From Candidatus Omnitrophota bacterium (lineage in GTDB: Bacteria; Omnitrophota; Gorgyraeia; Gygaellales; Profunditerraquicolaceae), in contig JBDRLN010000040.1 in the NCBI GenBank assembly GCA_043812955.1, positions 685-64,684 on the forward strand: a stretch of 64,000 nucleotides of DNA, read 5' to 3'. This document shows, piece after piece, positions 5,369 through 60,435 of the stretch (position 1 is its first letter; every line of letters starts with the position of its first letter). Made by a program: the position numbers and the translations under genes. The notes below the pieces were generated by a model, which saw only the letters and a program-made list of their open reading frames with translations, was not told where the DNA came from and ran no database searches.

Positions 5369-6026
5369 ACATTTTATTCTGAATATGTTTTTAACCGGCT
5401 TATTATTCGGCTCAGGCCCTTGCTTAGCCAGCTGCGGCCCCATCCTGGTAACTTATATTGCCGGGACTAAAAAGAATATAGCTAAAGCCGTAATCAGTTA
5501 TGTTTTATTTTCTTTAAGTCGAATATTGGTATATCTGGTTTTAAGCCTGGCAATTTTTTTTATCGGGGCATTAAGCGTTGAGAAGATTAGCCTTAATTAT
5601 TCCGGGCTGGTATATAAAATTGGAGGCGGTTTTATTGTTTTGATCGGATTATTTATGGTTTTAGGGAAAAGAATAGGGTATCCGCATTTTTTAAATAGCC
5701 TGAGCAAAGGGCTCTTAGAAAAAGATAAGAAAAGTGTTTGTTTATTAGGTTTAATAGTCGGGCTGCTTCCTTGCGCGCCGTTATTAGCGGTATTTTCATA
5801 TATTGCCCTGGCAGCTAAGTCTACTCTTGAGAGTTTAGTTTATGGCCTATCTTTTGGAATAGGCACGATTCTTTCTCCTTTGATTTTATTAGTAATAGCC
5901 AGCGGGGCATTATCCGGTTTTATCCGCAAAAAAGAAGAGGTATATCGGCGGGTATTTAGTCTGGCCTGTGGATTAATTATTATTTTCTTAGGTCTACAAT
6001 TGATATTAAGAGGGATTAATGGTTAG
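5361..6026 (+). CDS. Polytopic membrane protein, DsbD_2/UreH-like family (CxxxC in the first TM)
   Basis: About 6 TM helices, GSGPCLASCGPIL and LLPCAPLL motifs. The family call is from memory and unverified. Confidence 0.45.
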   Translation: MNKHFILNMFLTGLLFGSGPCLASCGPILVTYIAGTKKNIAKAVISYVLFSLSRILVYLVLSLAIFFIGALSVEKISLNYSGLVYKIGGGFIVLIGLFMVLGKRIGYPHFLNSLSKGLLEKDKKSVCLLGLIVGLLPCAPLLAVFSYIALAAKSTLESLVYGLSFGIGTILSPLILLVIASGALSGFIRKKEEVYRRVFSLACGLIIIFLGLQLILRGING

Positions 6027-6753
6027 GGTTTTTTGTTTAAGCAAGGATATTTCGGGGAACAGAATTACGCTTACTGATAAGGATCAGATCCATCATTTAA
6101 GAGATGTTCTAAGGCTAAAAAAAGATGAGAAAATTGTTGCCTGCGATGAAAAAGGAGATGAATATATTACTCTGATCGATAGTATTAAACCGGGGGATAT
6201 GGTCTTAAGGATTAAAGAGAGAAAAGTATTGGTTATGGATAATAAGCCGAAGATCACTATTGCCTGCGCTATTCCTAAGAAATCCAATATGGATGATATT
6301 ATTGACAAATTGACTCAAGTGGGAGTGGATAGGATAATTCCTTTACAGACCGAAAGAGTTATTGTCAGGATCGGGCAGGATAAAAAGATATTCCGCCAGG
6401 AGCGCTGGAATAAGATTGCGCTTAATGCCAGCCGGCAAAGCCTGAGAAAGTTCCTGCCGGTAGTGGATCCGATTAAGGATATAAAAAAGGTTTTAACTGA
6501 TTTGGATGAGTTTGATTTAAGATTAATACCCACGCTTGAAGGCAAAAGAATTACCATAAAAGAAACCTTAAAAAATCCAAACTTGAAGAATATTATTGTA
6601 TTTATCGGTCCGGAGGGAGATTTCACGCTTGAGGAAATAGCCTGGGCCAAGAAATCAGGCTGTATCCCGGTTACCTTGGGAGATTTGGTTTTGAGGGTTG
6701 AGACCGCGGCTGTTGCGGTTGCCGGTTTCCTGAGGTTTTATGAAAACCGCTAA
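6019..6753 (+). CDS. rsmE: 16S rRNA (uracil1498-N3)-methyltransferase RsmE
   Basis: PUA-like N-terminus and a C-terminal SPOUT fold with IGPEGDFT...LG motifs. Confidence 0.85.
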   Translation: MVRVFCLSKDISGNRITLTDKDQIHHLRDVLRLKKDEKIVACDEKGDEYITLIDSIKPGDMVLRIKERKVLVMDNKPKITIACAIPKKSNMDDIIDKLTQVGVDRIIPLQTERVIVRIGQDKKIFRQERWNKIALNASRQSLRKFLPVVDPIKDIKKVLTDLDEFDLRLIPTLEGKRITIKETLKNPNLKNIIVFIGPEGDFTLEEIAWAKKSGCIPVTLGDLVLRVETAAVAVAGFLRFYENR

Positions 6754-8101
6754 CCCTTCGACTGGGCTTAAGGGTAATGGAGAGCGTAGTCGAAGAGTTA
6801 GGCTAATCACCCTGGGATGTAAAGTAAATCAATATGAGACCCAGGTAATCCGGGAAAATCTTCTTAAGGCCGGATTCAAAGAATCAGAAAAAAACCTTCC
6901 CGCTGATATCTACGTTATTAATACCTGTACAGTTACTCATAAGGCTGATCAGGAATCGCTTTATTATATTAATCGATCAAGGCGTCTTAACCCCAAAGCG
7001 AAAATTATTGTAACCGGATGCCTGGCTGAATTGGATAAACGGATTATTTCCCGCCAAAAAGGAATAAGCCTCATTGTTAAGAATAAAGATAAATATAGAA
7101 TAGCTAAGTTGCTAAAAGGTTCAGGCTCTAACAATGGCTCAAATATAACCGGTTTTCATAAACATACCCGGGCATTTCTTAAGATCCAGGATGGCTGTGA
7201 TAATTTTTGTACTTATTGCAAGGTTCCGCTGGTCCGGGGCGCTTCCCGCAGCCGGCCATTAAGCGAAATACTGGAAGAAGCCCAGGCTTTAGTGAAAAAT
7301 GGTTTTAAAGAAATAGTCTTGACCGGAATATGCCTAGGGTCGTATGGAAAAGATGTGGGTAGAGGTAAAGGTAGAGGTAAAGGTAGAGGTAAAGGCATAG
7401 ATTTAGTTGGGTTAATTAAAGAGCTGGAAAAAATAAAGGGGTTAATCCGGATTCGCTTGAGTTCTATTGAGGCCAAAGATGTAACGGATGAGCTTATTGG
7501 CAGGATAGCTAAATCTAAAAAATTATGCCGGCACCTGCATATACCTATTCAAAGCGGAGATAACCAGATCTTAAAGGCGATGAACCGTAAATATTCCCGT
7601 CAGGATTACCTGGGCCTGGTCAGAAAGATTAAAAATAATATTGCGGATATTGCTATTACTACCGATTGTTTAGTCGGTTTTCCCGGGGAAAGAGAAGATA
7701 ATTTTCAGAATACCGTGGATTTAGTTAAAGAGATAGTTCCTCTAAAAGTGCATATATTTCCTTATAGTGAAAGAAAAGCCACTTCGGCCTATAATTTAAA
7801 AGATAAGATCCCATCCAATATTGTCAGGGACAGGATGATTTACCTTAAAATAATTGCTAATAAATGCGCTTTAGAGTTCCGGAAGAAATTTCTCGATAAG
7901 AGGATGGATGTTTTAATTGAAGGGATGGTCAAGGGTAGCCAAGGTCTTTGGCAGGGCCATACTGATAATTACCTTAAAGTCATGGTAACATCTGATAAGG
8001 ATATCCGCAATCGCATCCTATTGGTTAAGTTAAAAGATATAAAAAGGGACAGCGACTATTTTCTTGCGTCAAAAAGGAAACGGGGTCAGAATTATTTTTA
8101 G
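6740..8101 (+). CDS. mtaB: MiaB-family methylthiotransferase (MtaB-like), carrying an internal (GRGK)3 insertion
   Basis: N-terminal MTTase domain (ITLGCKVNQYETQ), radical SAM CDNFCTYC and a TRAM-like C-terminus. The 3' end reads into the left REP half. Confidence 0.85.
   Translation: MKTANPSTGLKGNGERSRRVRLITLGCKVNQYETQVIRENLLKAGFKESEKNLPADIYVINTCTVTHKADQESLYYINRSRRLNPKAKIIVTGCLAELDKRIISRQKGISLIVKNKDKYRIAKLLKGSGSNNGSNITGFHKHTRAFLKIQDGCDNFCTYCKVPLVRGASRSRPLSEILEEAQALVKNGFKEIVLTGICLGSYGKDVGRGKGRGKGRGKGIDLVGLIKELEKIKGLIRIRLSSIEAKDVTDELIGRIAKSKKLCRHLHIPIQSGDNQILKAMNRKYSRQDYLGLVRKIKNNIADIAITTDCLVGFPGEREDNFQNTVDLVKEIVPLKVHIFPYSERKATSAYNLKDKIPSNIVRDRMIYLKIIANKCALEFRKKFLDKRMDVLIEGMVKGSQGLWQGHTDNYLKVMVTSDKDIRNRILLVKLKDIKRDSDYFLASKRKRGQNYF
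7358..7393 (+). repeat. In-frame minisatellite (GGTAGAGGTAAA)x3 inside mtaB
   Basis: Three exact 12-nt copies encoding GRGKGRGKGRGK. Related GGTARAGGTA repeats occur in intergenic DNA at 16231-16261 and 58713-58807. Confidence 0.85.
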
Positions 8102-8852
8102 TTAGATTTTCCCTTCTTATACGTCTATTAATATTAGAAGGGAGGATTTTATGGCTAGAAGACCGCGTTTATTTGTATCTGGTATACCCTACCACGTTGT
8201 TCAGCGAGGCAATAATAAAATTCCTATTTTTTTATCTGATCAGGATTACCGTTTCTTTTTAGATGTACTTCAAGAAGCCAAATCTAAACACCCATGTTTT
8301 ATTTATAGTTATTGTCTGATGCCTAACCATTTTCATTTACTTATTGAACCCAAGGAAGAAAATAATGTCAGTCTATTAATAAAGTTATTGGGAGCTAAAT
8401 ATGTGAGATATATCAATAAAAACTATGAACGTTCAGGCACTCTATGGGAAGGCCGCTTCAAATGCTCATTGATTGATAAGGAGTTATATTTTTTAACCGT
8501 TCTTCGTTATATTGAAATGAATCCGGTAAGGGCTGGCATAGTTAATTCTCCGGAGTTGTATCGGTGGTCGAGTTATCGGGTCAGGGCAATTGGTGAAAGA
8601 AGTTTTATTGTAGATATGGATCCTTGGTATGATAACCTAGGTTCTAATACAGAAGAACGTCAAAATAAATATCGGCAATTCTTCCAAAATTTAATACCTG
8701 ATCCCGCTTTGCACCTTCTAAGAGAAATGACAAATAAGAATGGTATCGTAGGCAGTATAAATTTTAAATCACGGATTGAACAATCTATTCATAAAGAAAT
8801 TGTTATAAGGTCAGCTGGTAGGCCAAAGAACGAAAAATAATTCTGACCCCAT
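8082..8852 (+). mobile_element. REP-associated tyrosine transposase (RAYT) flanked by the two halves of a REP palindrome
   Basis: GGGGTCAGAATTATTTTT at 8082-8099 and AAAAATAATTCTGACCCCA at 8834-8852 are reverse complements. The same palindrome occurs uninterrupted at 13897-13938 and 44418-44474. Confidence 0.8.
8151..8840 (+). CDS. rayT: IS200/IS605-like Y1 transposase of the RAYT type (Transposase_17)
   Basis: HUH motif NHFHLLIEP and catalytic Tyr region YVRYINKNYERSGTLWEGRF. 229 aa. The stop codon lies inside the right REP half. Confidence 0.85.
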   Translation: MARRPRLFVSGIPYHVVQRGNNKIPIFLSDQDYRFFLDVLQEAKSKHPCFIYSYCLMPNHFHLLIEPKEENNVSLLIKLLGAKYVRYINKNYERSGTLWEGRFKCSLIDKELYFLTVLRYIEMNPVRAGIVNSPELYRWSSYRVRAIGERSFIVDMDPWYDNLGSNTEERQNKYRQFFQNLIPDPALHLLREMTNKNGIVGSINFKSRIEQSIHKEIVIRSAGRPKNEK

Positions 8853-8857
8853 TAAGG

Positions 8858-9028
8858 ATGGGTGTTTTGATTGAAGGCATGATTAAGGGTAGCCTTAAGT
8901 TTTGGCAGGGCTATACCGATAATTACCTTAAGGTCAGGATTGAGTCTAATAAGGATATCCACAATTGTATTTTAGCGGTTAAGTTAAAAGATATAGAGCG
9001 GGATTATTTCATAGGTCAGAGGAAATAG
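8858..9028 (+). pseudogene. Diverged duplicate of the mtaB 3' end (C-terminal TRAM-region fragment)
   Basis: Translates MGVLIEGMIKGSLKFWQGYTDNYLKVRIESNKDIHNCILAVKLKDIERDYFIGQRK, about 65% identical to MtaB residues MDVLIEGMVKGSQGLWQGHTDNYLKV...LVKLKDIKRD. About 70% nt identity to 7908-8060. Confidence 0.6.
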
Positions 9029-9083
9029 GGGACGTCTCTATTTTCCTTAAATCCGAGGGGGCGAGAAAATAGAAACGTCCCCT
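9028..9083. repeat. Palindromic element GGGGACGTCTCTATTTTCC ... GAAAATAGAAACGTCCCC (family copy 1)
   Basis: Perfect 19-bp arms. The same family occurs at 13788-13842. Confidence 0.6.
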
Positions 9084-9090
9084 ATTAATA

Positions 9091-13787: not shown

Positions 13788-13842
13788 AGGGGACGTTTCT
13801 ATTTTTTCGTTTGGGCAAATCTAAAAAATAGAAACGTCCCCT
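13788..13842. terminator. Palindromic element / bidirectional terminator (GGGGACGTTTCTATTTTTT ... AAAAAATAGAAACGTCCCC)
   Basis: 19-bp arms flanked by an A-run and a T-run. Same family as 9028-9083. Confidence 0.6.
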
Positions 13843-13896
13843 TTTTAGTTTCTGATTGACACCTGCCTAAAACAGTGGTATATTACACAACACTAT

Positions 13897-13938
13897 TGGG
13901 GTCAGAATTATTTTTTCTAAAATATAATTCTGACCCCA
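13897..13938. repeat. Intact REP palindrome of the RAYT-associated family
   Basis: GGGGTCAGAATTATTTTTT, a 9-nt loop, then AATTCTGACCCC. Confidence 0.75.
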
Positions 13939-23895: not shown

Positions 23896-25184
23896 TTATA
23901 ATGACCCAATTAGAATACGCCAGGAATAATATTCTTACCCCAATAATGAAGAAGATCGCTTCATTAGAAGGAATGCCTGCAAAAATATTTTTAGATCGCT
24001 TAAGCCTGGGTAAGATCGTCATCCCCTTAAATAAAAATCATAAGTTAAAAAACCCCTGCGCAGTTGGTTTAGGCCTAAAAACTAAAATCAACGCTAATAT
24101 CGGCACTTCTCCGGATAAGGATAAAACCGGCGATGAATTGGAAAAATTAGCTGTAGCTATTAAATACGGCGCGGATACGGTTATGGATCTGAGCGTAGGT
24201 GGTGATATCGTCGATGTCCGGCATAAGATATTAAAGGCTTCAACCGTTCCGGTTGGCACCGTGCCAATTTACGAAATAGCGCTGGAAGCTCAAAAGAAGA
24301 AGAGAGATCTGCTTAAATTCGATATTTTTGGTATTTTAGATTGTTTAGAGAAGCAGGCGAGCGAGGGGGTTGATTTTTTTACTATTCATTGCGGAGTTAC
24401 CCGAAAGAGCCTGGAGGCCCTAAAAGGAAGTAGAAGGCTGATGGGGATTGTCTCCAGGGGCGGGGCGATAATTTCCGCTTGGATAAAGAAGAATAAAAAA
24501 GAAAACCCTTTTTATGAATATTTTGATAAGATCCTGGATATCGCTTATCGTTACGATGTAACCTTAAGCCTGGGCGATGGGTTGCGCCCGGGTTCAATAT
24601 TCGATGCTACTGATAATGCCCAGATCGCCGAGTTGAAGATTTTAGGGGAACTTTGTCTTAGGGCCAGAAAGAGGAATGTCCAGGTGATGGTCGAAGGCCC
24701 GGGGCATGTCCCTTTAAATCAGATCAAAGAAAATATTCTTCTGGAAAAAAAAATTTGCCGAGGCGCGCCCTTTTATGTGCTTGGCCCTTTAGTTACTGAT
24801 GTTGCTTGCGGATACGACCACATTACGTCTTCTATCGGAGGGGCCCTGGCAGCTAGTTATGGGGCGGACTTTTTATGTTATGTGACCCCTGCGGAGCATT
24901 TGCGCCTTCCTACGGTTGAAGATGTTCGGGAAGGGGTGATAGCCTCGCGGATTGCCGGACATGCGGCGGATATTGTCAAAGGTTTGCCTTCGGCTTTAGC
25001 CTGGGATAAAAAAATGTCCTTGGCCCGTAAAAAACGTAATTGGAAAGAGCAGATCAGGTTATCTATTGATCCGGATAAGGCTATGGCTTATCGTTCGTCT
25101 TCCCGTCCGGACTTATCTGATGTTTGCACTATGTGCGGAGAATACTGTTCAATCAAAATAAGTGAGAAGTGTTTTAAAAGATAA
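23892..25184 (+). CDS. thiC: Phosphomethylpyrimidine synthase
   Basis: Highly conserved ThiC core and a C-terminal CTMCGEYCSIK Fe-S motif. Confidence 0.95.
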   Translation: MIIMTQLEYARNNILTPIMKKIASLEGMPAKIFLDRLSLGKIVIPLNKNHKLKNPCAVGLGLKTKINANIGTSPDKDKTGDELEKLAVAIKYGADTVMDLSVGGDIVDVRHKILKASTVPVGTVPIYEIALEAQKKKRDLLKFDIFGILDCLEKQASEGVDFFTIHCGVTRKSLEALKGSRRLMGIVSRGGAIISAWIKKNKKENPFYEYFDKILDIAYRYDVTLSLGDGLRPGSIFDATDNAQIAELKILGELCLRARKRNVQVMVEGPGHVPLNQIKENILLEKKICRGAPFYVLGPLVTDVACGYDHITSSIGGALAASYGADFLCYVTPAEHLRLPTVEDVREGVIASRIAGHAADIVKGLPSALAWDKKMSLARKKRNWKEQIRLSIDPDKAMAYRSSSRPDLSDVCTMCGEYCSIKISEKCFKR

Positions 25185-25189
25185 ATATT

Positions 25190-25471
25190 GCGGGTGTAGT
25201 TTCCCGCCGGGCTATAGAATTGTGGGCGGGATCCCGACTGTTCAAAGTCAAGGTCGGGACATCGGTAGAGCACCAGCTTCCTCCCGGCGCAGACATGAAT
25301 TGGGGTCGGGATCACGACTATCCAGAAATAAGTGTCGTGTCAAGCTGTATGATAATTTGCGGGTGTAGTTCATCGGTAGAACACCAGCTTCCTCCCGACG
25401 CAGACATGAATTGGGGTCGGGATCACGCCTAGGCTCAGGTGGGTGGCGTGTCAAGCTGGTGAATACGATCT
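25190..25471 (+). repeat. Two tandem degenerate copies of the tRNA-Gly 5' half, each interrupted by GC-rich hairpin inserts
   Basis: GCGGGTGTAGTT...CCAGCTTCC recurs at 25190 and 25357, identical to the 5' half of the downstream tRNA. Inserts: TCCCGRCGCAGACATGAATTGGGGTCGGGA, plus a 60-nt double hairpin in copy 1. Confidence 0.65.
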
Positions 25472-25542
25472 GCGGGTGTAGTTCAATGGTAGAATGGCAG
25501 CTTCCCAAGCTGTATATGGCGGTTCGATTCCGCTCACCCGCT
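25472..25542 (+). tRNA. tRNA-Gly (anticodon CCC)
   Basis: Manual fold: acceptor GCGGGTG/CACCCGC, D-arm GTTC..GAAT, anticodon stem GCAGC/GCTGT with loop TTCCCAA, T-arm GGCGG-TTCGATT-CCGCT. No encoded CCA. Confidence 0.85.
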
Positions 25543-25605
25543 AAGAAATACAGTAGGTAGCCTGCCTGCCGGTAGGCAGGTAGGTAGTAGATAGGAAAGA
25601 AAAAG

Positions 25606-26307
25606 ATGCATAAAATAAGGGAATATGTATTAAGAAACAGAAAAAGAATAGCCTACATACTATATGCTACATGCTATATACTGTTCTTCGCAGGCTGTGC
25701 CAGTGTGCCGATGGTTGTGCCTACCCAGCAGATCCCGTTTAAGCCCGGTGGAGTTTATCACCGGGTAGAAAAAGGAGAAACCCTCTGGGCCATCTCCAAG
25801 AAATATTCACTAGGTGTTGATGATTTAGCCAGGGCAAACCATATCTTTGATGCTACCCGCGTGGAAATCGGGCAGTTACTATTTATACCCGAAAACAAGA
25901 GGTTTTTGCCGGTAAGGGTTTCCGCAAACGATGATTTTATCTGGCCTTTAGAAGGAAAAGTCATATCTGGTTTTGGCCAGAGTTTTAATAATATGGTCAA
26001 TAAGGGGTTGAATATTCAGCCTTTTAGCTCTAGGAATGTCCTGGCCTCGCGCAGCGGCAAGGTAGTTTTTTATAGCCATAATTTTCTTTCTTTTGGCAAG
26101 ACCTTGATTATCGATCACCAGGATGGTTTTCTGACGGTTTACGCCGGGGCCTCTGAGATCCTGGTAAAGACCGGAGATAATGTTTTAAAAGGAAATCTTA
26201 TTGCCCGGACTGACGCGGTTAATAACACAGCCGGGGATAAATCGTATTTACATTTTGAGATCAGGAAGGGCCATTTAGCTCAAAATCCTTATTTTTATCT
26301 GCCATGA
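25606..26307 (+). CDS. LysM domain and M23 peptidase domain protein (NlpD-like murein hydrolase or activator), lipoprotein-like
   Basis: Lipobox FFAGCAS. LysM YHRVEKGETLWAISKKYSLGVDDLARAN. C-terminal M23 fold. Confidence 0.85.
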   Translation: MHKIREYVLRNRKRIAYILYATCYILFFAGCASVPMVVPTQQIPFKPGGVYHRVEKGETLWAISKKYSLGVDDLARANHIFDATRVEIGQLLFIPENKRFLPVRVSANDDFIWPLEGKVISGFGQSFNNMVNKGLNIQPFSSRNVLASRSGKVVFYSHNFLSFGKTLIIDHQDGFLTVYAGASEILVKTGDNVLKGNLIARTDAVNNTAGDKSYLHFEIRKGHLAQNPYFYLP

Positions 26308-28411: not shown

Positions 28412-28463
28412 CCACCCCGTAGGTGGAGCCCACCTACGGGGTGGAGCCCACCTACGGGGTGGA
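28412..28463. repeat. Tandem palindromic element CCACCCCGTAGGTGGAGCCCACCTACGGGGTGGAG (about 1.5 copies)
   Basis: GC-rich perfect palindrome. A related copy at 54472-54508 overlaps the panB stop. Confidence 0.65.
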
Positions 28464-33809: not shown

Positions 33810-33975
33810 AAGCTTTCCTAGCTTTGCAGCAAGTATTTTCTGCCACTAATTTGTTTGTAATGAATTTGGGTAAATTCCTTTACATTGGTTTAAATTTTAT
33901 AGGGAAAGCTTCTGATTACAGAGATTAAATGCAGATTACACAGATTAATTAGCGACGAAGAATCGCTGGAATCTT

Positions 33976-34046
33976 TTTTCCCGCCATGTTAATTAAAATA
34001 GCTACCGGGATCCCGCCGGCTATAAGATTTGCTTGGCGGGAAAAAT
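33976..34046. repeat. Structured double-hairpin element TTTCCCGCC..CCGGGATCCCGCC..GGCGGGAAA (family copy 2 of 3)
   Basis: Shares the stem sequences TTTCCCGC / GCGGGATCCCG / CGGGAAA with 25199-25260 and 37049-37120, while the loops differ. Confidence 0.5.
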
Positions 34047-34195
34047 CTCCGTAATCAAGTTCTTTCCCTTTTGCTACAAACTTAGGAAAGAACTCTATTT
34101 AAGATTACACAGATTCCTTCGACGCGATTTTAATCTTTTAATCAGAGATTGCTGTATTATTTAGGAATATTTCAAACAATCTCAGATTCAAGGGT

Positions 34196-35464: not shown

Positions 35465-37002
35465 CCAGGGAAATTGTATTAATACTGGATTTCGGATCGC
35501 AGTATACGCAGTTAATCGCCAGGCGGGTAAGGGAGAACCGGGTTTTCTCTAAGATCGTTCCTTATAATATTTCAGCTAAAGAGATAGCCGCTAGCGCTCC
35601 TAAGGGGTTGATTTTATCGGGTGGGCCGGCATCGGTAGTGGTTAAAAAAAGCCCTCTGCCGGATAAGGGTATTTTTAAACTGGGTATACCGATTTTAGGC
35701 ATATGTTATGGTATGCAGGCTATTTCTCAAATGCTCGGCGGTAAAATCAGGCATACTAAGGATCGGGAATACGGAAAAATCGAATTATTTGTGGATGATA
35801 ACCGGATGCTTTTTGCCGGACTGCCGGGTAATCTTACCTGTTGGGCTAGCCACAGCGATTATGTGATTAAGCCGCCTCCTGGATTTAGAATTAGCGCGCA
35901 CAGCCTGAATTCTCCGGTTATGGCTATCGGCAATAAAGCGAAAAAGATATATGGAGTTCAATTTCACCCGGAAGTAACCCATACTGAGAAAGGCACCCAG
36001 TTATTAAGTAATTTTTTATTTAAAGTCTGTGATTGTACCGGCCGCTGGACTATGCGTTCATTTATTAAGGAGACTGTGGAGGGGATCAAAAAAACAGTTG
36101 GCAAAGATAAGGTAGTTTTAGGCTTAAGCGGCGGCGTAGATTCTTCCGTAGCCGCCGTACTAATGCACAGGGCAATAGGCAGGAATTCCCGCTGTATTTT
36201 TATTGATAATGGCTTAGTCCGCAAAGATGAAGCCCTGCAGATAAAGAATATTTTCCGCCAAGGTTTTCATCTTAACCTGGATTATGTGGACCGCAGCCGC
36301 AGGTTTTTAAACGCCCTTAAAGGAATAACTGATCCCGAAGAGAAAAGAAAAATAATCGGCAGGGAATTCGTTAAGGTTTTTGAGGAAGAGGCCAAAAAGG
36401 TCAGGGGTGTGAAATATTTAGCCCAGGGCACGCTTTATCCTGATGTCATTGAATCGATTTCCGCGACAGGTTCTCCTACCAGTAAGATAAAAAGCCACCA
36501 TAATGTCGGAGGGCTTCCGGAGCATATGCGTTTAAAGTTGATTGAGCCATTGCGGGATTTATTTAAGGATGAGGCCCGCCAGATTGCCAAAGAACTTGGC
36601 CTTCCGGAAAGCATAGTTTATCGTCAACCTTTTCCCGGGCCAGGCTTAGCCATCAGGATAATCGGAGAAGTGACTGATGAACGCCTGAAGATCTTGCGGG
36701 AAGTGGATAACCGGGTAATCGAAGAGATCAGGAAAGAGAATCTTTATAACCAGGTCTGGCAGTCATTCGCCATATTATTGCCGATTAAAACAGTCGGGGT
36801 TATGGGCGATGAGCGGACCTATGACTGTGTCGCGGCTATTCGCTGTGTATCCAGCGTTGACGGCATGACAGCTGACTGGGTTAAACTTCCCCATGAAGTA
36901 TTAGAGAAAATATCCAACCGGATAGTCAATGAAGTAAAGGGTATTAACCGCGTAGTCTACGATATAACCTCCAAGCCTCCGGCGACCATTGAGTGGGAAT
37001 AG
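35461..37002 (+). CDS. guaA: GMP synthase (glutamine-hydrolysing)
   Basis: GATase ILGICYGMQ, ATP-PPase SGGVDSSV, C-terminal dimerisation domain. Confidence 0.95.
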   Translation: MTREIVLILDFGSQYTQLIARRVRENRVFSKIVPYNISAKEIAASAPKGLILSGGPASVVVKKSPLPDKGIFKLGIPILGICYGMQAISQMLGGKIRHTKDREYGKIELFVDDNRMLFAGLPGNLTCWASHSDYVIKPPPGFRISAHSLNSPVMAIGNKAKKIYGVQFHPEVTHTEKGTQLLSNFLFKVCDCTGRWTMRSFIKETVEGIKKTVGKDKVVLGLSGGVDSSVAAVLMHRAIGRNSRCIFIDNGLVRKDEALQIKNIFRQGFHLNLDYVDRSRRFLNALKGITDPEEKRKIIGREFVKVFEEEAKKVRGVKYLAQGTLYPDVIESISATGSPTSKIKSHHNVGGLPEHMRLKLIEPLRDLFKDEARQIAKELGLPESIVYRQPFPGPGLAIRIIGEVTDERLKILREVDNRVIEEIRKENLYNQVWQSFAILLPIKTVGVMGDERTYDCVAAIRCVSSVDGMTADWVKLPHEVLEKISNRIVNEVKGINRVVYDITSKPPATIEWE

Positions 37003-37195
37003 ATAAAGCGAAAAACGAAAAGCGTAAAGCGAAAAGTTGAAGTTAAAAGATTTCCCGCTTGGAATCTGATATTTGTAGGCGGGATCCCGTTTTGTGGCTT
37101 AAGCGTTGGACGGGAAAAACTTTTAGTTTTTCGCTTTCACTTTATTTTTTCGTTTTTCACTTTTAGCTTTGCGCTTTTAACTTTTAACTTTTCAG
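37003..37195. repeat. MITE-like element: roughly 45-70-bp low-complexity inverted arms (AAAGCGAAAA-type) around a double-hairpin core
   Basis: The left arm is purine-rich (AAAGCGAAAAACGAAAAGCG...) and the right arm is its approximate reverse complement. The core at 37049-37120 is family copy 3. It fills the whole guaA-dnaE spacer. Confidence 0.45.
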
Positions 37196-44417: not shown

Positions 44418-44474
44418 GGGGTCAGAATTATTTTTTCAAGTATTTAGACTAAAGAAAAAATAATTCTGATCCCA
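44418..44474. repeat. Intact REP palindrome of the RAYT-associated family, with a 17-nt loop
   Basis: GGGGTCAGAATTATTTTTTC ... AAAAAATAATTCTGATCCCA. Confidence 0.75.
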
Positions 44475-53637: not shown

Positions 53638-54483
53638 ATGAGCAAAATTACTCCTCAGGATATTTTAGGATTAAAGGGTAAGCGTAAAATTACTATGCTT
53701 ACCGCGTATGATTATCCTTTAGCTTTTTTGATTGATAAAGCAGGTATTGATATTATCCTGGTTGGTGATTCTCTGGCTAACGTGGTTTTAGGTTTAGAGT
53801 CTACCAAAGAAGTCGGGATGTCCGAGATGATTTATCATTCTAAGGCTGTTTCCCGGGCAGTTAAACAGGCCTTGCTGGTAGGGGATATGCCTTATGAATC
53901 TTACCAGGTAAATCCCGCAGAATCAGTTAATAATGCCTTAAGGTTTATTAATGAAGCTAAATGCGCTGCTGTAAAGCTGGAATGGTTTGACCAGTGTTTA
54001 GAAGTAACTGAAAAGATTATTAAATCCGGGATACCGGTAATGGGCCATATCGGGCTTACTCCTCAGACCGCGGATAAACTGGGCGGGTTTAAGGTTCAGG
54101 GCAAAGACGCGCAGGCCGCTAAGAAGTTAATCCAGCAGGCTAAAGATCTTCAAGGATTAGGTTGTTTTTCTATAGTCTTAGAATGTGTTCCGGACCGGAT
54201 AGCCCAAATCATTACCAAGGAACTTAAGATTCCTACTATTGGCATCGGGGCAGGTTTATTCTGCGATGGCCAAGTGCTGGTATCTCACGATATGCTCGGG
54301 CTATTTGATAGGTATAAACCGAAATTCGTTAAGCAATATGTGAATTTATCGGAAAGCATTTTGCAGGCGATAGAGGAATATAAGAGCGAGGTTATAAATA
54401 GCAAATTCCCGGATAAAGAACATAGTTTCAGTATTAGCCAGGAAGAGTTGGATAAGTTAAAGACTGATTTGTCCACCCCGTAG
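53638..54483 (+). CDS. panB: 3-methyl-2-oxobutanoate hydroxymethyltransferase
   Basis: ITMLTAYDYPLAFLIDKAGIDIILVGDSLANVVLG. Confidence 0.9.
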   Translation: MSKITPQDILGLKGKRKITMLTAYDYPLAFLIDKAGIDIILVGDSLANVVLGLESTKEVGMSEMIYHSKAVSRAVKQALLVGDMPYESYQVNPAESVNNALRFINEAKCAAVKLEWFDQCLEVTEKIIKSGIPVMGHIGLTPQTADKLGGFKVQGKDAQAAKKLIQQAKDLQGLGCFSIVLECVPDRIAQIITKELKIPTIGIGAGLFCDGQVLVSHDMLGLFDRYKPKFVKQYVNLSESILQAIEEYKSEVINSKFPDKEHSFSISQEELDKLKTDLSTP

Positions 54484-54508
54484 GTGGAGTCCACCTACGG
54501 GGTGGACA
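54472..54508. repeat. Palindromic element CCACCCCGTAGGTGGAGTCCACCTACGGGGTGGA overlapping the panB stop codon
   Basis: Same family as 28412-28463. It supplies the last codons (LSTP*) of panB. Confidence 0.65.
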
Positions 54509-60247: not shown

Positions 60248-60252
60248 CCTTA

Positions 60253-60312
60253 TGTCAACCCCAGAGGTTGACATAAATACTGTTTACCGTTGTCAACCTC
60301 TGGGGTTGACAA
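60253..60312. repeat. Compound palindrome (GTCAACCCCAGAGGTTGAC ... GTCAACCTCTGGGGTTGAC)
   Basis: Two mutually reverse-complementary copies, each itself terminally palindromic, between apt and tRNA-Arg. Confidence 0.6.
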
Positions 60313-60329
60313 AGAGGGTTATAATATTT

Positions 60330-60403
60330 GCGCCTGTAGCTCATAAGGATAGAGCAGCAGTTTCCTAAACTGCGTGCGGCAGGTTCGATTCCTGCCAGGC
60401 GCA
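60330..60403 (+). tRNA. tRNA-Arg (anticodon CCU)
   Basis: Manual fold: acceptor GCGCCTG/CAGGCGC, D-stem GCTC/GAGC, anticodon stem GCAGT/ACTGC with loop TTCCTAA, T-arm GCAGG-TTCGATT-CCTGC, discriminator A. Confidence 0.85.
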
Positions 60404-60435
60404 TAAAATTAGAGATAAGGGATAAGAGTTAAGGG

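Follow-up and report, generated by a model that had tools for sequence, protein, structure and literature searches.

What is the origin of two truncated, hairpin-bearing copies of a tRNA 5' part that stand directly ahead of an intact tRNA gene? The question is raised by a tRNA-Gly(CCC) locus in a 64,000-nucleotide (nt) stretch of Candidatus Omnitrophota contig JBDRLN010000040.1 (hereafter the window), where a repeat-family search found the tRNA 5' part (GCGGGTGTAGTT) three times, starting at positions 25190, 25359 and 25472. Such a threefold recurrence is far beyond chance, and Tandem Repeats Finder (TRF) described the array by a period of 111 and 2.2 copies. The sole functional tRNA of the array is the gene at 25472–25542 on the plus strand, of the type that we call X, which was called by both ARAGORN and Rfam (RF00005, 68.6 bits) and is the only copy with a complete cloverleaf, including a T arm and a 3' acceptor strand. 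Scanning 25100–25650, neither ARAGORN nor Rfam at E ≤ 10 called a tRNA in the two upstream copies (units 1 and 2). An initial annotation of the window, made from its letters alone, had already proposed three copies of which only the third is a complete tRNA, and its starts at 25190 and 25472 are correct; copy 2 begins at 25359 rather than at 25357. With a probability of roughly 0.55, somewhat better than even, we conclude that a tandem tRNA array is decaying at this locus and has been colonised by a previously undescribed repeat family resembling repetitive extragenic palindromic (REP) elements.

Unit 1 (25190–25350, plus strand) is a truncated pseudo-copy of tRNA-Gly(CCC) with two interruptions. 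Its tRNA-derived segments are nt 1–12 (25190–25201), nt 13–35 (25260–25281) and nt 36–45 (CAAGCTGTAT, 25341–25350). Two double hairpins interrupt them. The first, 58 nt long, separates nt 12 from nt 13 within the 5' strand of the D stem (25202–25259; hairpins at 25202–25231 and 25232–25259); the second, 59 nt long, separates nt 35 from nt 36 in the anticodon loop (25282–25340; hairpin A at 25282–25311 and hairpin B at 25312–25340). An 8-nt spacer (GATAATTT, 25351–25358) leads to unit 2 (25359–25459), in which nt 1–35 (25359–25392) are followed by a 59-nt double hairpin at the same anticodon-loop position (25393–25451; A at 25393–25422 and B at 25423–25451) and by the tail CAAGCTGG (25452–25459). 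A 12-nt spacer (TGAATACGATCT, 25460–25471) then precedes the intact gene, all of these features lying on the plus strand. Both units comprise the tRNA from nt 1 to about nt 43–45, running through the 3' strand of the anticodon stem and ending in the variable region, with no T arm or 3' acceptor strand. The initial annotation had noticed that the copies resume after an anticodon-loop insert, which they do as far as the variable region, but it had taken that insert for a single 30-nt hairpin instead of two adjacent ones. Its second, double-hairpin insert in copy 1 is also real, although it measures 58 nt rather than 60 and lies in the D stem rather than the D loop. Between the units, the two A hairpins differ by 1 nt; hairpin B of unit 2 has an entirely different loop from that of unit 1, together with a compensatory A-T to C-G change in the stem. 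An open reading frame (ORF; VEHQLPP..ADMNWGRDH) that had been dismissed as spurious is indeed so, spanning tRNA-derived sequence and hairpin loops that are wholly different in relatives. Assembly artefact was ruled out as a source of the array by identical structures in independent NCBI, JGI and Logan assemblies.

The truncated units derive from a paralogue of the gene that they precede. With its insert removed, unit 2 was identical at 42/42 positions to a second tRNA-Gly(CCC) gene, Y, as found intact in the sister genome L045 (fetched loci carry L numbers), compared to 36/42 for X, the intact gene of the window; spliced unit 1 matched intact Y at 42 of 44 positions. Among relatives with a single gene at this locus, seven carry Y (L002, L004, L008, L033, L048, L108 and L109) and three carry X (L003, L005 and L052), and the surviving member differs even among close relatives. 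L045, whose upstream thiC gene is 93% identical to that of the window, is the mirror image of the window: a truncated, hairpin-bearing X is followed by an intact Y. Hairpin A of this truncated X is nearly that of the window, its hairpin B shows compensatory changes in the stem, and its tail and spacer are shared with the window (by hand count, 15 of 18 positions match between CAAGCTGTATGATAATTT of unit 1 and CAGGCTGTATGATATTAT of L045); the loop core of hairpin A in unit 2, with the 5-nt clamps removed, is identical to that of hairpin A in L045. In L046 (thiC 87% identical) the locus begins with an uninterrupted Y, L107 has a chimeric gene whose anticodon stem is of type Y and whose T arm is of type X, and L037 contains checkerboard X/Z mosaics whose boundaries are the inserts. 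The alternation of X and Y, the L107 chimera and the L045 mirror image therefore indicate that the locus descends from a recombining tandem X/Y pair.

The inserts belong to a family of hairpins (TCCCGNN-loop-NNCGGGA, hereafter clamp hairpins) with 7-bp stems, a fixed TCCCG/CGGGA clamp and loops of 3 to ~20 nt, which always occur as directly abutting pairs. Stem positions 6–7 covary (C-G, A-T and T-A), and stems also show paired deletions (TCCCGCC/GGCGGGA versus TCCGCC/GGCGGA). When nine anticodon-loop inserts were aligned with their loops trimmed, 88.9% of cells were paired compared to 79.5% in shuffles, 8 of 19 pairs had changed on both sides, and none of 500 shuffles reached the observed covariation. 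The 64-kb window holds five clamp doublets, all in non-coding DNA: three within this 350-nt array and two dispersed intergenic copies with no strand assigned, one at 33979–34041 with a T run and an A run on its flanks and one at 37053–37115, 51 nt past a stop codon. The initial annotation had linked the D-arm insert of copy 1 to sites noted at 33976 and 37049, and this family link held.

Outside the array, the doublets are lineage-specific and intergenic. In the genomes searched, exact-clamp doublets beyond the composite (a pseudo-copy of the tRNA 5' part that has an insert at nt 12/13, at nt 35/36 or at both) occurred only in genomes that have the composite. Dispersed doublets, which are also intergenic in L037 and L041, lie between co-directional genes, 15–170 nt past the stop codon, with TT..AAAA flanks. 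Loop similarity exceeded the shuffled null between hairpin 1 of the unit 1 D-arm insert and the dispersed copy at 34011–34041, and between two dispersed L041 copies that are inverted relative to each other. Hairpin A of L040 resembles the reverse complement of its hairpin B (score 0.38, above 99.9% of the null), and the L040 and L041 doublets fold as one long hairpin atop the anticodon stem (z = −5.75 and −2.4). In the window doublets, the two hairpins fold separately and their loops are not inverted copies of each other; unit 2 forms a three-way junction. Strand asymmetry of G-T versus A-C mismatches, as an indicator of an RNA versus a DNA role, gave no signal, with too few cases. A double-clamp pattern had 54 matches in a viral collection, mostly by chance in GC-rich contigs but including the Omnitrophota contig L096 described below, and a D-arm junction pattern retrieved only ordinary GCGGGA..TCCCGC terminator-like hairpins from the same collection because the pattern is self-complementary.

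Several further observations concern the array and its hairpins. In unit 1, GCGGG of the acceptor 5' strand and CCCGC, the 5' clamp of the first inserted hairpin, are complementary (25190–25207), so that an alternative GCGGG..CCCGC hairpin is possible; the base pairs of the clamp stem are the same as those of the tRNA-Gly acceptor stem. A promoter scan of the array found none ahead of any unit, and the single 'terminator' reported by a terminator scan was the acceptor strand paired with the first clamp, on the minus strand. Folding the whole array as RNA gave z = −3.2, which is uninformative. As guides or antisense sequences, the hairpin loops had only chance matches of 10–11 nt, in coding DNA. 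Omnitrophota intergenic DNA is also packed with low-complexity, partly palindromic words (GATTACACAGATTA, AAAGCGAAAA/TTTTCGCTTT, GTTACGAATTATGAG and AGTTCGTAGTT/AACTATGAACT), for example at 33900–34130 and 37000–37190 of the window, 2680–3400 of L010 and 11285–11362 of L045, and window clamp doublets are placed centrally in such regions.

The composite was found behind thiC in at least six Omnitrophota lineages from independent assemblies: L009/L047, L016/L035/L039/L043, L037 (two units), L040, L041 (two units) and L045. The nt 12/13 insertion position is common to L009, L037 and L041, and L048/L108 retain a tiny remnant (GCGGGTGTAATT, then TCCCGC, then ATGGCGAT..) that supplies the thiC stop codon. 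In a poorly resolved ThiC tree, lineages with the composite are interspersed with lineages without it. That related genomes share this arrangement marks it as real and recurrent.

A second case involves a different tRNA. At 5778–5985 of L096 (IMG/VR uncultivated virus genome (UViG) 3300018489_000264), a 5' pseudo-half of tRNA-Glu(TTC), interrupted after nt 13 by a clamp doublet, is followed by a duplicated spacer and then by the intact tRNA-Glu. Although filed as viral, this sequence is Omnitrophota chromosomal DNA, with a GyrA 82–84% identical to those of Omnitrophota metagenome-assembled genomes (MAGs). A further array lies on a contig assigned to the Chitinophagaceae by TrmD matches (L038, 12294–13538; also L036), where 9.8 tandem 127-nt units precede an intact gene, each consisting of tRNA-Gly(CCC) nt 1–35, a single 17-nt TCCCGCAWTGTGCGGGA hairpin, nt 44–53 and an A-rich spacer. 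Because the contig was picked by the search pattern itself, it is uncertain whether this array is akin to the Omnitrophota one. Homology between its hairpin and hairpin A of L016 was not significant once the clamp was discounted, and a relative of this contig had no tRNA at the corresponding position. The Chitinophagaceae spacers contain Bacteroidota-type TAnnTTTG motifs and, by eye, a three-unit periodicity, and the array runs off the contig end.

How long the pseudo-copies have persisted can be read in two ways. At four-fold degenerate sites of thiC, identity to the window was 0.80 for L045, 0.50 for L009 and 0.28 (saturated) for L041. By hand count, the 34 nt derived from Y differ by 0–1 nt (33–34/34 identical) among the window, L009, L040 and L041, and clamps and stems are kept between lineages whose loops are unalignable. 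A near-identical Y part and preserved stems despite diverged thiC sites argue for constraint. Alternatively, the pseudo-copies may be young in each lineage, given that intact Y occurs in the very close relatives L045 and L046 and that the array clearly undergoes gene conversion.

A gene for a REP-associated tyrosine transposase (RAYT) lies 17 kb upstream of the array (8151–8840, plus strand; NCBIfam NF047646, 84 bits with a cutoff of 80; Pfam Y1_Tnp, 4.9e-17) and is bounded by perfect 17-nt inverted repeats (GGGGTCAGAATTATTTT) at 8082–8098 and 8834–8850; machinery for mobilising REPs is thus present in this genome. We found no cognate RAYT for the clamp family in the 64-kb window, the flanks of this gene being GGGGTCAGAATTATTTT repeats and not TCCCG clamps; the GGGGTCAGAATTATTTT palindrome is probably the cognate REP of the window RAYT. 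Elsewhere, GGGGTCAGAATTATTTT-loop-AAAATAATTCTGACCCC hairpins identical to the RAYT flanks occur at 13898–13937 and 44418–44473, one of them just upstream of a small basic-protein gene that resembles ribosomal protein S21 by eye. The RAYT unit (8082–8850) appears inserted into a MiaB/RimO-like radical-SAM methylthiotransferase gene (6740–8101; 8852–9028): the ORF upstream of RAYT reads through the left repeat to a stop, and what resembles, by eye, an orphan TRAM-type C-terminus (..GYTDNYLKVRIES..) comes after the right repeat. Two additional hairpin repeat families follow genes, namely GGGGACGTYTCTATTTT palindromes and ACCCCGTAGGTGGAGYCCACCTACGGGGT (9024–9086, 13789–13845; 28416–28458, 54477–54501), making this genome unusually rich in distinct palindromic repeat families.

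We favour a decaying, repeat-colonised tandem array for several reasons: the units are not tRNAs, yet splicing out the inserts leaves sequences that match Y at 42/44 and 42/42 positions; X and Y alternate as the gene across relatives, and the composite recurs in independent assemblies; clamp doublets elsewhere are intergenic and confined to genomes with the composite; the hairpin stems covary, and loop similarity within genomes exceeds the null; and there is a RAYT gene in the window and a second case at tRNA-Glu. Among the explanations offered by the initial annotation, a hotspot for small hairpin elements fits best, with three of the five window doublets in the array, the same family at the same two tRNA positions in relatives, and the tRNA-Glu case. 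Under this scenario, two old tRNA-Gly(CCC) paralogues, X and Y, would have been duplicated and have recombined unequally, leaving a short tandem array behind thiC, with a spare copy arising by duplication across the 5' boundary of the gene or by decay of one tandem member. Units 1 and 2 would be Y-type pseudo-copies that lost everything 3' of the anticodon stem, with the last unit, X, alone remaining a gene. Clamp doublets, which probably move as single-stranded DNA in the manner of REPINs (REP doublets), would land at stem-loop boundaries of tRNA genes (nt 12–14 and 35/36), favouring single-stranded tRNA-gene stem-loops, and only insertions into spare copies would survive. The resulting GC-rich, three-way-junction spacer in a thiC–tRNA transcript would guard the 3' end of the thiC mRNA as REP elements do, and the hairpin block would separate the thiC message from RNase P processing and release of the tRNA.

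A number of points weigh against this scenario. The sole RAYT seen has another palindrome family at its flanks and so is not tied to the clamp family, which conserves only a 5-bp clamp, far less than classical REPs. Clamp copy number was counted in 64 kb of this genome and in ~10-kb pieces of relatives. A dead relic would not be expected to keep the 34-nt Y part with 0–1 nt differences, at thiC identities of 0.28–0.50, unless an intact Y was present until recently, as in L045/L046, or is present elsewhere. Identical insertion sites and 5'-only remnants are ascribed to target preference and survivorship by assumption, and a REP-like RNA role of the block is plausible by analogy.

The truncated copy and its clamp hairpins might instead form a selected, functional tRNA-derived RNA, acting either in cis as a leader of the tRNA or in trans as a small RNA, with a tRNA-like 5' portion, made up of the acceptor 5' strand, the D arm and the anticodon stem, needed as a scaffold and the hairpins as structural modules on it. 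We regard this as unlikely, while recognising that the Y-derived 34 nt remain 33–34/34 identical across the window, L009, L040 and L041 despite saturated neutral sites in thiC, that the adjoining intact gene is X, so gene conversion by the neighbour cannot preserve Y-specific bases, that compensatory changes preserve the hairpins while their loops diverge, and that the composite is kept in at least six lineages, with ~10 units in the Chitinophagaceae contig. A functional RNA fits poorly with the variation in unit number (0, 1 or 2) among close relatives, including L046 and L048 types without a full unit, with the outermost anticodon-stem pair being broken in six of nine units, and with L040 and L041 acceptor 5' strands that mismatch the 3' strand of the neighbour; moreover, no Rfam family matches the units, and the intact Y of very close relatives means that the pseudo-copies may be young and undecayed. 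A broader version, in which the pseudo-half and clamp unit represent an undescribed class of tRNA-derived structured RNA, is more doubtful; selection would then keep the tRNA part and the hairpin stems, and the unit would belong to the leader of the tRNA from which it derives (in Omnitrophota, Gly and Glu) and be open to amplification into arrays. Such an RNA could regulate, in cis, the maturation of the tRNA or the fate of the thiC mRNA, or it could be a small RNA with its specificity in the variable loops. Near the opposite extreme, the units could be pure debris, that is, a redundant tandem copy struck by selfish palindromes and now being deleted, with apparent conservation due to recency and concerted evolution. 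We judge this unlikely as well. X and Y share an anticodon and are thus redundant, the state of the array differs between genomes with thiC 93% and 87% identical, the L037 mosaics and L107 chimera show frequent recombination in the array, and the remnant in L048 and L108 is almost erased; debris, however, should not show compensatory substitutions and paired deletions that maintain pairing across lineages with saturated neutral sites, nor should its remnants always be 5' parts with inserts at fixed positions and never random fragments.

Two origins suggested by the initial annotation fare much worse. Serial integration and excision at a 5' attachment (att) site would make the partial copies attL/attR-type scars of an element that targets the 5' part of tRNA-Gly(CCC). 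Prokaryotic tRNA gene fragments usually arise in this way, and the literature on such fragments covers att-site and CRISPR origins only (PMC9897764). Even with tRNA-Gly(CCC) dispensable enough to serve as a target, the att origin is very improbable here: the units are 8–12 nt apart with no element between them, the 64-kb window has no integrase or recombinase besides the distant RAYT, synteny of thiC, the tRNA and a downstream M23 peptidase gene is unbroken in ~30 relatives, the copies represent the 5' part of a distinct paralogue (Y) rather than a duplicated core of the intact X, and the tRNA/clamp junction had no match in the viral collection. The second suggestion, decayed intron-like insertions, can be taken with a model in which units 1 and 2 belong to tRNAs that are split or contain introns: as the 5' exon or half, each would be joined, once the hairpins are removed, to a 3' half, supplied by the 3' part of the downstream tRNA or from another locus. 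The acceptor 5' strands of all copies could pair with the one 3' acceptor strand present, and archaeal tRNA introns do occur in the D arm and anticodon loop, where the inserts sit here. This too we consider highly improbable, as the host copies are incomplete, offering no T arm or 3' acceptor strand to splice into, and match no group I or other Rfam intron; no orphan Y-type 3' half or extra T arm was found in the 64-kb window; the same hairpin doublets occur in intergenic DNA unrelated to tRNAs; and the L040 and L041 pseudo-copies mismatch the 3' strand of their neighbour. To our knowledge, no bacterial machinery for such tRNA splicing exists. A cassette-integration model, in which hairpins, spacer and a new 5' half entered the anticodon loop together, was rejected because the 3' and 5' parts of the intact gene match each other and the downstream DNA holds no displaced 3' fragment.

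The surroundings of the array are well conserved, and the relatives of its ThiC assign the window to Candidatus Omnitrophota. Upstream lie thiD2, thiE and thiC (phosphomethylpyrimidine synthase; 23901–25184, plus strand; Pfam ThiC_Rad_SAM, E = 4e-188), whose stop codon is 5 nt ahead of unit 1. The conserved downstream neighbour, identified by Pfam and by synteny in relatives, is a LysM/M23 peptidase gene (25606–26307, plus strand). The order thiC–tRNA-Gly(CCC)–M23 was kept without interruption in every Omnitrophota locus fetched. Many relatives have the thiC stop codon within tRNA nt 8–10 (..CTG CGG GTG TAA.. or ..CGG GCG TAG..), and the two genes therefore ancestrally overlapped by ~10 nt; this overlap of ~10 nt was seen in L052, L109/L110, L004, L041, L037 and L048/L108. 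In a co-transcript with such an overlap, RNase P cleavage would take off the thiC stop codon. Exact-protein lookup of the window ThiC and M23 proteins gave no match, although a cluster of 100% identical ThiC nonetheless exists. Gene-strand bias is extreme across the 64-kb window: of the 60 ORFs that reach 100 aa, 59 lie on the plus strand. Two inverted-repeat blocks at 60252–60312 (TGTCAACCCCAGAGGTTGACA and TTGTCAACCTCTGGGGTTGACAA), directly before tRNA-Arg(CCT) (60329–60404), the other tRNA of the window, have an operator-type or hairpin look and are unrelated to the clamp family.

Taken as a decaying, repeat-colonised array, the locus shows a redundant tRNA pair decaying in an uncultured phylum, with paralogues X and Y trading places, so that the one that is the gene in one sister genome is the wreck in the other. 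What is left of a wreck is always the 5' part, and a new family of palindromic doublets with GC clamps occupies the same two sites in it. For annotators, tRNA fragments of this kind would not be att sites, and the Omnitrophota would gain both a REP-like family and a RAYT. The locus also suggests a testable idea, namely that single-strand-specific repeat elements may prefer tRNA-gene stem-loops. If the conserved tRNA part reflects selection rather than recency, the units would represent a new kind of tRNA-derived regulatory RNA.

Known systems resemble individual aspects of this locus. Archaeal split, tri-split and multi-intron tRNAs, as in Nanoarchaeum and Caldivirga, have separate 5' pieces and GC-rich extra helices at the D arm and anticodon loop, and the tri-split set includes tRNA-Gly(CCC). 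The present case differs in being bacterial, in having no matching 3' half, bulge-helix-bulge motif or splicing-endonuclease context, and in that its inserts are a dispersed repeat family. Palindromic elements of Rickettsia are found in RNA and protein genes, and short repeats of cyanobacteria in the RNase P RNA gene and in hairpin loops, in each case keeping a hairpin shape in structured-RNA genes. Those repeats are tolerated in functional genes, whereas the clamp repeats were seen only in truncated spare copies. Tandem partial duplication and unequal crossing-over in tRNA arrays likewise leave a partial copy of the 5' end ahead of the intact gene when the duplication crosses the 5' boundary, as well as chimeras and mosaics like those of L107 and L037, but tandem duplication alone does not account for the same repeat family at the same positions in every remnant. 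Att-site tRNA fragments share the partial copy near an intact gene; they differ in flanking kilobase-scale integrase elements and in usually being the 3' part, compared to the 5' parts of another paralogue spaced 8–12 nt apart found here (PMC9897764). The closest parallel is with REPs and REPINs, which, like the clamp family, are short, imperfect extragenic palindromes that often form doublets and whose copies within a genome resemble each other (PMC3116915, PMC3337134). Such doublets can fold as two hairpins or as one long hairpin; among the clamp doublets, those of the window fold in the first way and those of L040 and L041 in the second. The clamp family departs from REPs and REPINs in conserving the 5-bp clamp (TCCCG/CGGGA) alone, in having directly abutting doublets that share a CGGGATCCCG centre, and in occurring inside tRNA-derived sequence at fixed positions, which as far as we know has not been described for REPINs. 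By this analogy, the clamp doublets behave like REP/REPIN-type elements and would constitute a lineage-specific, new REP-like family.

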